Positions 1,481-2,830 of a stretch of DNA of 39,611 nucleotides are shown here, one piece after another; positions within the stretch are counted from its first letter, which is position 1, and every line of letters starts with the position of its first letter. Source of the stretch: a virus. The notes under the pieces were generated by a model. The model saw only the letters and a list, made by a program, of their open reading frames with translations. It searched no databases and was not told the origin of the DNA. Location of the stretch: UHGV virus genome UHGV-0179848. One strand, written 5' to 3'. A program made the position numbers and the translations under genes.

Positions 1481-1677
1481 TTAATTGATACAACAAATAG
1501 ATTGAAAAGTCATCAACAATGATTCAGGGCGGTGATTATTTACTTAAAGAAAACGAAGAGTTAGGCGGTGAAAACGATCATAAAATGATCATTTTATTGA
1601 CTTTTTATCCAGTGAAGGTAGGATCGCGCGTATATGTAGTATGTTTCAAATCAACAGGATACTACATAAAAGGGAAA

Positions 1678-1703
1678 CCCAGCATAGCTGGAACTATGCT
1701 GGG
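1678..1703 (-). terminator. Rho-independent terminator for minus-strand transcripts
   Basis: Perfect 10-bp stem CCCAGCATAG/CTATGCTGGG with 6-nt loop; on the minus strand it is followed by TTTCCCTTTTAT. Confidence 0.5.
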
Positions 1704-1890
1704 CCGATTTAGACAAGTTTGCATCAATGCTTTACTTCGGGACTACATAAATGGCGACTCAGATAGCGCGAACTATTCTGGGTCAATCTGTAAAAAACTG
1801 CATCAATGCTTCACTCTGAGCTCGTGGTGTATCCTATGATATTCCCCGGCCTCCTGTAAAGCAGAGATGCATCTGTTCAGGCAGGAGAAA

Positions 1891-2097
1891 ATGGATAAAC
1901 TGACCACCGACCAAAAGTTACAGGCTGCGCGAATTGCAGCTGATATCACAATTGCAGCAATGACATCCACCAGTTGTGTCTTTACCTCTTTTCATACAGC
2001 TGGTGATTCATCAGCTATGCAATTATGGAACGCGTGCTTTTCTGATGTAATTCGGGCAATCAGCGAGTCAACTGACCCTCACGAACCGCAAAAATAG
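1891..2097 (+). CDS. Hypothetical small protein (68 aa)
   Basis: ORF starting MDKLTTDQKLQAARIAADIT... with AGGAGA Shine-Dalgarno 6-8 nt upstream; 3' end overlaps the convergent ORF 2060-2260. Confidence 0.35.
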   Translation: MDKLTTDQKLQAARIAADITIAAMTSTSCVFTSFHTAGDSSAMQLWNACFSDVIRAISESTDPHEPQK

Positions 2098-2260
2098 CGC
2101 ATCTTGGGGTACACAGGATCTGCATCGCTATCCACATTGCAGTGGTGAAGTTTCGATCCTGTAATGTATTTTCATCAAGTCCTGAACGTAGCGCATTGAT
2201 AATTTCTGCGCTTAATATTTCCAGACCTTTGGTATCGGGCTGCTTTTTGTTCTTGTCCAT
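2060..2260 (-). CDS. Hypothetical small protein (66 aa)
   Basis: ORF with GAGGAAA Shine-Dalgarno upstream of the ATG; convergent with and overlapping 1891-2097. Confidence 0.4.
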   Translation of the reverse strand: MDKNKKQPDTKGLEILSAEIINALRSGLDENTLQDRNFTTAMWIAMQILCTPRCAIFAVREGQLTR

Positions 2261-2306
2261 GATTATTTCCTCTGACTGGTATATACATCGCCCATGAAAA
2301 TCAAAC

Positions 2307-2332
2307 CGACAGGAGAAGCTGTCGGTTTGTAT
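2307..2332. terminator. Bidirectional stem-loop terminator
   Basis: AAACCGACAGgagaagCTGTCGGTTT with T-rich flanks on both strands, immediately downstream of the 2335-2580 gene stop. Confidence 0.5.
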
Positions 2333-2334
2333 TG

Positions 2335-2580
2335 TTACATCATGGCACTGTCACTTCCGGGCTGAACCGGCTCTGGTTGCTCTACGGGCTGAGGCTCATT
2401 CTCCGTGCTGTTTTCAGCCGGAGAATGGCCAACCATTCGGGCCAGCACTTCATCAACATATGCGTCGATTTGTGCCTCAAAATCCTTGCGAACCTGCGCC
2501 TTCAGCACGCGGTTCACTTCTTCAGAATAAAGTGCCTGTTTGACAAGCTCTTCAGTAACCGTGCCTTTAATCTCTGGCAT
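2335..2580 (-). CDS. Hypothetical protein (81 aa) with acidic, proline-rich C-terminal tail
   Basis: Strong AAGGAGAA Shine-Dalgarno upstream; C-terminus ENSTENEPQPVEQPEPVQPGSDS. Confidence 0.5.
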   Translation of the reverse strand: MPEIKGTVTEELVKQALYSEEVNRVLKAQVRKDFEAQIDAYVDEVLARMVGHSPAENSTENEPQPVEQPEPVQPGSDSAMM

Positions 2581-2615
2581 GAATATTCTCCTTTCCTTTT
2601 CTGGTTCACAAAAAA

Positions 2616-2801
2616 TTAAATCTGACCGGAGTCTTTCGGCTGCGGCATTACAGCACCGCTTTTTATCTTTTCCTCTGCGGCTGCATCAATTTTATTTCGA
2701 AAATAATTTCGGATAATTTTGTAACCTCCGCTGAGGAGATAAAGTAGACACACACACGTGCAAAAATAAAGCATAAATGTATGTAGTATTGGCATAATCA
2801 C
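2616..2801 (-). CDS. Small membrane protein (61 aa, one predicted TM helix)
   Basis: Hydrophobic N-terminus LYFCTCVCLLYLLSGG; lies directly downstream of the esterase gene on the same strand. Confidence 0.4.
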   Translation of the reverse strand: MIMPILHTFMLYFCTCVCLLYLLSGGYKIIRNYFRNKIDAAAEEKIKSGAVMPQPKDSGQI

Positions 2802-2830
2802 TCACCATTTTAAATAAAATGAATTACCCG

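Follow-up and report, generated by a model that had tools for sequence, protein, structure and literature searches.

A convergent, 3′-overlapping gene pair in the cargo region of an Escherichia coli Mu-like prophage and its possible likeness to Tab/anti-Tab

The 39,611-nucleotide viral genome UHGV-0179848 (the window, i.e. the whole stretch of DNA analysed here) contains a Mu-like prophage of Escherichia coli in reverse orientation. Between its NanS-p-like esterase gene and com lies a cluster of small genes, two of which, called A and B, converge and overlap at their 3′ ends and are the main subject of this work. From the esterase gene to com, the order is DUF1378, DUF826, a hairpin (T1), gene A, gene B and a second hairpin (T2) (Table 1). 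In phage Mu, the cluster is absent, and the mom promoter (Pmom) and com come immediately after gin. Hence, the region from the esterase gene to position ~1500 represents extra cargo relative to Mu, as the original prediction, made from the letters of the window, had proposed in describing an accessory cargo cluster. This region holds two separate things, a module made of the esterase, DUF1378 and DUF826 genes and the A/B pair.

Table 1. Features of the cargo region and its surroundings (window positions; aa, amino acids; nt, nucleotides; bp, base pairs; ORF, open reading frame; PGAP, Prokaryotic Genome Annotation Pipeline)
Feature	Position	Strand	Remarks
mom	513-1250	-	Pfam Mom 3.2e-77
com, 66 aa	1204-1404	-	Zn-ribbon translational activator; Pfam Zn_ribbon_Com 3.3e-12; PGAP WP_001443803; cluster boundary
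GATC-containing palindrome	1448-1472		com/mom upstream region; flanked by 23-nt inverted repeat 1418-1440 / 1506-1528
ORF 1519-1839, 106 aa	1519-1839	+	diverges from Pmom; phrog_26524 matches residues 1-77
Tandem duplication, ~80 bp (79-81 bp)	1661-1741 and 1742-1820		repeat search; T2 perfect in copy 1, degenerate in copy 2
T2, hairpin, 13-bp stem	1676-1705	-	candidate terminator; U-rich tail on minus strand only
Gene B, 68 aa	1891-2097	+	opposite to late genes; small acidic helical protein (predicted); N-terminal motif LTTDQ(K/R)(L/I)Q.ARIAAD
A/B 3′ overlap, 38 nt	2060-2097		read from sequence
Gene A, 66 aa	2060-2260	-	late-gene orientation; small helical protein (predicted); motif F..AMW.AMQ..C.P..A; WP_001536755
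T1, bidirectional terminator-like hairpin, 11-bp stem	2302-2329	both	5 nt past DUF826 stop, 41 nt upstream of gene A
DUF826 gene, 81 aa	2335-2580	-	acidic Pro-rich C-terminal tail; Pfam PF05696 E 2.9e-15; phrog_311
DUF1378 gene, small membrane protein	2616-2801	-	Pfam PF07125 E 2.2e-23; phrog_494; PGAP WP_001536757
NanS-p-like esterase gene, 693 aa	2831-4912	-	SASA + DUF6645; Pfam SASA 3.9e-12, DUF6645 1.5e-32
Gin-like invertase gene	5003-5563		upstream of esterase gene

Coding status and conservation of the convergent pair

The original prediction described two convergent ORFs with an overlap of ~38 bp, each preceded by a good Shine-Dalgarno sequence. Both ORFs and their overlap are present as described. 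The statement on translation signals holds for A, whose ribosome-binding site (GAGGA) lies 7 nt upstream of the ATG, but not for B, whose AGGAG is just 3 nt away from the ATG, a suboptimal spacing. In an identical genome, RefSeq/PGAP annotates A and omits B; in strain CP55_Sichuan, B is annotated as a 45-aa truncated ORF.

We analysed the substitution patterns of both genes in an alignment of seven distinct haplotypes, down to 91% identity. In the part specific to B (1891-2058), 15/21 variable sites fall at codon position 3 (binomial p = 0.0004), and the ratio of non-synonymous to synonymous polymorphism (pN/pS) is 0.16-0.22. The corresponding values for the part specific to A (2099-2260) are 10/15 sites (p = 0.0085) and a pN/pS of 0.05-0.11. 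In the overlap itself, every difference between alleles leaves protein A unaltered but changes the tail of protein B. Examination of all six frames as a control indicated that the antisense frame sharing third positions scores an equally low pN/pS, and thus this pattern alone cannot fix the strand; its assignment comes from ORF integrity and from distant homologues. The alternative frames of the A/B region carry stop codons or indel shifts.

Word-indexed protein searches with A and B returned only near-identical E. coli copies, and distant relatives of A came to light only when 1.84 billion cluster representatives were searched exhaustively with HMMER. This search yielded two relatives, with 43% and 36% identity, and a subsequent profile search yielded three more, all of which share the motif F..AMW.AMQ..C.P..A. 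The A homologues (P0008-P0012 and those of contigs L023 and L041) were found in Mu-like phages only, where they are flanked by a small-terminase-like gene (DUF1804) on one side and the gene of the large terminase on the other and point in the direction of the late genes. In L041, A starts 11 nt ahead of the small-terminase stop codon. There was no match for the distant A and B proteins in a tblastn search of GenBank phages, and no confirmed A/B locus in the GTDB representative genomes.

In the contigs of these distant relatives, a convergent gene follows the A homologue in every case. In contigs L021 and L022, it is an 88-aa ORF whose N-terminus (LTTDQRIQVARIAAD) matches that of B; the Smith-Waterman score of B against this ORF is 63, compared with 22.3 +/- 4.0 for shuffled sequences, 0/20000 of which reach that score. 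In L021, L022, L023 and L041, the homologue of B is an ORF of 80-90 aa that converges with the A homologue, with overlaps of 26, 26, 26 and 29 nt, respectively. The frame of the overlap is kept in these four contigs, with a core GTCAG[AT]T that corresponds to ..Q(L/I).. in A and ..ES.D.. in B. Between L021 and L022, pN/pS amounts to 0.24-0.28 for A and 0.11-0.12 for B, indicating purifying selection on both. B without A was not seen in any search made, whereas A occurs without B.

As distant homologues occur in the same arrangement, both A and B are real protein-coding genes, and their convergent overlap is ancestral. They form an ancient, mobile, convergent 3′-overlapping pair specific to Mu-like phages. 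The possibility, raised along with the original prediction, that conservation patterns would mark the region as non-coding was not borne out by codon-position bias, low pN/pS and distant homologues; the remote-homology searches that it proposed found distant A and B homologues as convergent overlapping pairs in Mu-like phages. The annotation of RefSeq genomes, in which B is missing, is to be corrected.

Scans of Pfam, PHROGs, NCBIfam and PADLOC gave no informative family for A or B; weak matches to unnamed PHROGs were obtained (phrog_25148 for B, phrog_21398 for A). Profile searches against PDB sequences found nothing below E 0.2, and Foldseek with the low-confidence A model found no match in the PDB. 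Neither family is hydrophobic, with Kyte-Doolittle 19-residue maxima of 0.3-1.5 across members. Rfam had no match on either strand of 1300-3000. Our literature searches, none of which was aimed specifically at A/B, found neither small gene described.

At the population level, parts of 1400-2900 are matched in 233/5426 complete E. coli genomes, at least 80% of this stretch being covered in just five of them. The A/B segment itself is present in 18/5426 of these genomes and, in addition, in IMG/VR and metagenome contigs; STEC2018-607 (NZ_CP075697) is an example of a lysogen with an intact cassette. In the common O157/Sp18-type prophages, 1400-1873 and DUF826 are kept and 1874-2300 is replaced; the replacement contains a plus-strand 56-aa CxxC...CxxC ORF starting at the same point as B. 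This zinc-ribbon ORF (approx. 4509-4679 in L002, O157:H7 Z1835; also in L003) has a good ribosome-binding site, and PGAP treats this ORF and ORF 1519 together as a single 'frameshifted' pseudogene. Homology between B and this CxxC ORF was tested and rejected.

Natural alleles lacking either gene also occur. B is lost and A intact in L005, by a W46* mutation, and in L006, L012, L025 and L040, by a 5′ deletion. Conversely, A is inactivated by a nonsense mutation (C50*) and B is intact in 11 contigs, which are lysogens; GCA_053652335.1 provides an example of the C50* allele.

Flanking hairpins, the mom control region and the esterase module

The region contains more terminator-like sites than expected (7 versus 1.8 +/- 1.3). 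Hairpins had been predicted at 2307-2332 and 1678-1703 and proposed to break the cluster into units insulated from Pmom. They are present and strong and do divide it, with their coordinates corrected to those of T1 and T2. The fold energies of T1 are -22.3 kcal/mol on the minus strand (tail AUUUUCAU) and -23.2 kcal/mol on the plus strand (z -5.7 and -5.6, respectively), and its tail is partly U-rich in both directions. T2 folds with -21.0 kcal/mol (z -4.6; tail UUUCCCUUUUAU) and has no U-tail on the plus strand. The z-scores are relative to dinucleotide shuffles, 0/200 of which folded as well. T2 is a candidate terminator that may shield Pmom and com-mom from transcription through A. In O157-type variants, a different hairpin occupies the place of T1.

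Two further features complete the picture given by the original prediction, namely the tandem duplication that carries T2 and ORF 1519-1839. The degenerate hairpin of the second repeat copy folds weakly (-10.2 kcal/mol), and the duplicated stretch is single-copy in L002, L003 and L004. Among single-copy relatives, UTAK-15 and strain 102651 have the perfect hairpin and O157 Z1835 the degenerate one. ORF 1519-1839 is marked by PGAP as a frameshifted or incomplete pseudogene in every genome checked; its frame and C-terminus vary among variants, the latter shifting with the repeat copy number. We therefore rejected it as an intact gene, and it is probably decayed or not a gene. A promoter scan identified a plus-strand promoter-like site diverging from Pmom, TTGACT-16-TAGGAT, at 1597-1624. 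Another, TTCACT-19-TATGAT at 1810-1840, was read by eye and has a 19-nt spacer.

In Mu, Pmom is under Dam/OxyR control, and a divergent promoter, momP2, is known, which is occupied by RNA polymerase when the late activator C is absent (PMC3378877). Plus-strand transcription would likewise diverge from the mom promoter region of the window, which would suit lysogen-specific expression of B. In contrast with the window, no product is known downstream of momP2 in Mu; the Pmom region of the window differs, and its divergent promoter is a predicted one. The distance from the com ATG to the GATC sites, of which there are two in the window, is 47-65 nt, whereas Mu has three, 74-110 nt away, and hence Pmom must be arranged differently in the window. 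The 23-nt inverted repeat (CCTGCTTTGTTGTTGATGCCTTT / AAAGTCATCAACAATGATTCAGG) is symmetric around the GATC palindrome, so that the start of ORF 1519, on the divergent side, mirrors the ribosome-binding region of com in position. A second GATC pair is found within an 18-nt palindrome (AAAACGATCATAAAATGA / TCATTTTATTGACTTTTT; window 1571-1606) that overlaps the -35 element of TTGACT-16-TAGGAT, and the divergent transcript is possibly under Dam-sensitive control by this palindrome.

In E. coli AST198 (L006, NZ_AP043606), a gene for a 350-aa DNA cytosine methyltransferase (1668-2874) replaces mom and overlaps the 3′ end of com in the same manner as the mom gene, which suggests that a different DNA-modification enzyme is under translational control of the Com type in this prophage.

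The other unit of the cargo region ends at T1. The membrane protein of 61 aa and the 81-aa protein with an acidic proline-rich tail announced by the original prediction are indeed encoded there and belong to the DUF1378 and DUF826 families, with matches above the gathering score (82.6 and 56.6 bits, respectively, for a cutoff of 25 in both cases). PGAP assigns the start of DUF1378 to the ATG at 2795, giving 59 aa, and not to the GTG at 2801 (61 aa); the protein has one predicted transmembrane helix, with a Kyte-Doolittle 19-residue maximum of 2.07. In the lambdoid phage PhiR12_2, the genes of antiterminator Q and holin S enclose three genes in the same order, with products of 660 aa (an esterase), 60 aa and 96 aa. 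Their amino acid identities with the window proteins are 56% (over 590 aa), 50% for DUF1378, whose counterpart is ORF B78, and 46% for DUF826, whose counterpart gene lies just upstream of holin S. In Stx2a phages, ORFs for DUF826 and DUF1378 are also located between nanS-p and S (PMC10462455).

These collinear homologues and the Stx2a gene order imply that DUF1378 and DUF826 are not independent cargo but move with the NanS-p-like esterase, a point missing from the original prediction. By gene order and homology, the three genes (2335-4912) are one module, of the same Pfam families as that located between the holin gene and Q/stx in lambdoid and Stx phages. Unlike the lambdoid module, the window copy is found in a Mu-like prophage between gin and com, with a terminator-like hairpin at its end and no lysis cassette after it. 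The N-terminal 110 residues of the esterase also differ. The alignment with the lambdoid homologue begins at residue 114 in the window protein and at residue 75 in the homologue, and the N-terminal ~110 residues (window 2831-3160 region as listed) have no counterpart in the latter. PADLOC found no match for A, B, DUF826, DUF1378 or the esterase.

As for the setting of the prophage, the stretch 50-384 codes for the N-terminal part of ZraS, a sensor kinase of the host (NCBIfam E 2.6e-58). The prophage end starts at 385, and from there on, the sequence is the same as in a copy that a different strain carries in bcsA. The insertion site is thus zraS, the first 112 codons of which are left (window 50-385). 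Near-identical prophages are inserted in bcsA, araG, an ABC-transporter gene and rhsD as well as inside Stx prophages, such varied sites being expected for transposition.

A possible analogue of Tab/anti-Tab

The closest architectural precedent of the A/B pair is the tab/atab pair of the Pseudomonas Mu-like phage JBD26. Tab is encoded on the opposite strand and acts on tail assembly through the tape measure protein (PMC10884400). Its partner gene, atab (gene 30), directly follows the small terminase gene and is plus-stranded; the anti-Tab protein is made with the late operon and binds Tab, so that tail assembly of the phage itself escapes the block. Homologues of Tab are always accompanied by atab (PMC10884400). 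According to the JBD26 record, tab and atab are convergent, with an overlap of 47 nt.

A and B share several of these traits. In the window as in L021-L023 and L041, A is co-oriented with com/mom and all late genes, and B is opposite to them; the pairs of L021, L022, L023 and L041 share with tab/atab both the slot and the orientation of each gene. Both pairs are convergent with overlapping 3′ ends (26-38 nt for A/B), and in both, the gene on the opposite strand has never been found without its partner in the late direction. The proteins are similarly small, with 83 + 83 aa for Tab/anti-Tab and 66-69 + 68-90 aa for the A and B families. Tab has its own promoter, from which it is expressed constitutively in the lysogen, whereas that of B is predicted. 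In contrast with tab/atab, the window copy lies between the esterase module and Pmom/com rather than between terminase genes, with A following a terminator-like hairpin, and A also occurs with other cargos.

On these grounds, we tentatively propose as the best-supported reading, while regarding it as far from secure, that A and B may form a defence/self-immunity cassette of the Tab/anti-Tab kind made of unrelated proteins, which in the window has been relocated to the cargo region between gin and com. B would be the effector. Encoded against the direction of the late genes, it would be produced in lysogens under a promoter of its own and would be directed at incoming phages or at some process of the host. 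In the window, its transcription would start from a plus-strand promoter diverging from Pmom, like momP2 in Mu; promoter-like sites also precede B in L021, L041 and L023. A would be the antidote, made in the late direction when the prophage turns lytic, and would neutralize B. With no terminator room between the two genes and only T1 and T2 flanking them, each mRNA is expected to run antisense through the other gene, so that geometry would force coupling at the RNA level; this would add reciprocal transcriptional or antisense interference across the entire partner gene. The antisense regulation suggested by the original prediction is hence plausible, as the positions of the hairpins imply a structurally unavoidable overlap of the two mRNAs. 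The natural null alleles of A or B fit an effector that needs an antidote for phage growth only. In such a Tab-like model, the loss of the antidote harms phage production and not the lysogen, and therefore, the C50* allele of A is allowed.

Several observations weigh against this proposal. Smith-Waterman comparisons of all A and B members with Tab (gp31) and anti-Tab (gp30) gave z-scores of -1.2 to 2.6 relative to shuffles, and hhalign of the A and B profiles against both proteins gave probabilities of 0.1-0.3%. Homology between A/B and anti-Tab/Tab is rejected in view of this lack of sequence and profile similarity, so the analogy is one of architecture and A/B would be an analogue, not a member, of the Tab/anti-Tab family. 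The divergence of A and B is uncoupled, with 69% identity for B and 36% for A between L021 and L041, and 60% for A and 33% for B between L021 and L023, which is unexpected for a tightly co-evolving binding pair. The single-sequence AlphaFold2 models are all-helical and of low confidence (predicted local distance difference test of 60 for A and 66 for B). The Shine-Dalgarno sequence of B, close as it is to the ATG, is also degenerate in L011. Upstream of B, the predicted promoter-like sites TTAACG-17-CATAAT (L021, L041) and TTCACC-17-CATAAT (L023) fall within the start of the adjacent coding sequence, and thus their conservation may reflect coding constraint only, making them weak evidence. Finally, A is outside the late operon in the window, after a strong hairpin and upstream of Pmom, and just 41 poorly conserved nt with no recognizable promoter precede its ATG; hence, its late expression there is not evident.

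The A homologues also face unrelated convergent cargo, which equally speaks against the proposal. In L018 and L019, the gene convergent with the A homologue codes for a protein with a Zn-finger and DUF4145, and that of L018 matches PD-T7-4 in PADLOC (E 6e-6). PD-T7-4 has since been characterized and renamed RAZR, an abortive-infection RNase of the HEPN type (PMC13017515). The RAZR-like gene of L018, a Salmonella Mu-like prophage, spans 5259-6116 on the minus strand and combines a Cys4 Zn-finger with a DUF4145 HEPN domain and an R-x7-H motif; L019 has a truncated 145-aa version (5261-5698, minus strand). In L020, the convergent gene (5241-5741, minus strand) codes for a 166-aa coiled-coil protein with a C-terminal CxxC...CxxC Zn-ribbon (phrog_1244, E 4e-34). 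Homology of B with the RAZR-like or phrog_1244 partners was tested and rejected. The presence of RAZR-like genes makes the slot facing A a defence-cargo slot, which is in favour of the proposal. At the same time, the association of A with several cargos indicates that A is no exclusive partner of B and may play a part that does not involve B. In a bolder version, which we consider improbable, A would be a cargo-independent late 'safety catch' for whichever effector converges on it, be it B, the RAZR-like proteins or the phrog_1244 protein. The cassette of the window would then have been rewired to mom control, with C switching the polymerase from the B-ward promoter to Pmom, and the whole would represent a new defence/self-immunity system of enterobacterial Mu-like phages.

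Phage morons and the cargo of prophage hotspots are accessory genes that usually form single-gene units. The A/B segment resembles them in being absent from the reference phage Mu and absent or replaced by alternative cassettes in close relatives, and in having terminator-like hairpins and predicted promoters. As in cargo hotspots, a validated type of defence gene, the RAZR-like one, occupies the equivalent slot in sister phages. The main rival to a Tab/anti-Tab-like cassette is therefore that A and B are independent accessory genes with unrelated functions, whose 3′ ends were fused by genome compaction and which are carried together by contiguity. A would be a generic late-direction gene at the edge of a cargo hotspot, B interchangeable cargo, and any antisense effect incidental. 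This explanation, doubtful though it is, deserves serious consideration, as it accounts for the three unrelated convergent partners of A, the uncoupled rates of divergence, the natural loss of either gene with the other intact and the swap of the whole cassette for a single CxxC ORF in O157-type prophages. However, the two-gene convergent overlapping unit, unlike the usual single-gene moron, has been kept as a pair across distant phages. Its overlap frame persists down to ~35% identity and through the move to a different genomic slot, purifying selection acts on both genes in both slots, B is never found without A in our searches, and the layout is that of an experimentally proven functional pair, tab/atab. 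An RNA-level switch of the excludon or lambda oop/cII type, whereby complementary convergent mRNAs would make the expression of A and B mutually exclusive between lysogenic and lytic states in the absence of protein antagonism, strikes us as unlikely. The lack of terminator room between the genes, bracketed as they are by the bidirectional T1 and the minus-strand T2, with predicted transcripts antisense over the partner, is consistent with it. Moreover, the late operon must cross the antisense B to reach the large terminase gene in L021, L023 and L041, and all five lineages, like tab/atab, have kept an overlap. However, purifying selection on both proteins outside the overlap implies that the products matter and not transcription alone, and no Rfam family matches the region. 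Such a switch is also compatible with the proposed cassette, as well as with independent genes, and does not exclude them.

The original prediction considered that the pair could be a toxin/antitoxin-like module, which in the classical sense of a type I or type II addiction module that stabilizes the prophage or aborts infection is very unlikely. Small convergent genes with overlapping 3′ ends, a location in prophage cargo and a HEPN toxin-like gene in the neighbouring slot of sister phages might recall such systems. The type I loci txpA/RatA, bsrG/SR4 and fst/RNAII are likewise convergent units with overlapping 3′ ends, the RNAs of which can pair. Unlike them, A and B code for conserved soluble proteins on both strands, so neither is a non-coding antisense RNA, and neither family contains a hydrophobic toxin peptide. 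Nor do the genes form the co-directional operon of type II systems, in which the loss of the antitoxin is intolerable: they are convergent, and natural lysogens continue to carry nonsense or deletion alleles of one partner or the other. The C50* allele of A with B intact would not be allowed if the pair were a classical addiction module. The uncoupled divergence and the absence of toxin or antitoxin matches in Pfam, PADLOC and NCBIfam also argue against this option. Lastly, that one or both ORFs are chance open frames in non-coding regulatory or decayed DNA is hardly credible. The omission of B by PGAP, the restriction of word-indexed searches to near-identical E. coli copies and the equally low pN/pS of the antisense frame would agree with this view, but both proteins have distant homologues with their motifs and arrangement kept where the DNA is no longer alignable, and the alternative frames are broken.

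If B is a defence or exclusion protein and A its late antidote, the pair would represent a second, sequence-unrelated case of the defence/counter-defence layout of Pseudomonas Mu-like phages, present in prophages of Shiga-toxin-producing and other E. coli. It would provide a function for two orphan protein families and suggest a searchable signature for new prophage immunity pairs. Should A and B prove to be independent, the analysis would still be useful in that the annotation of B is corrected and that DUF1378, DUF826 and the NanS-p esterase are brought together as one transferable module.

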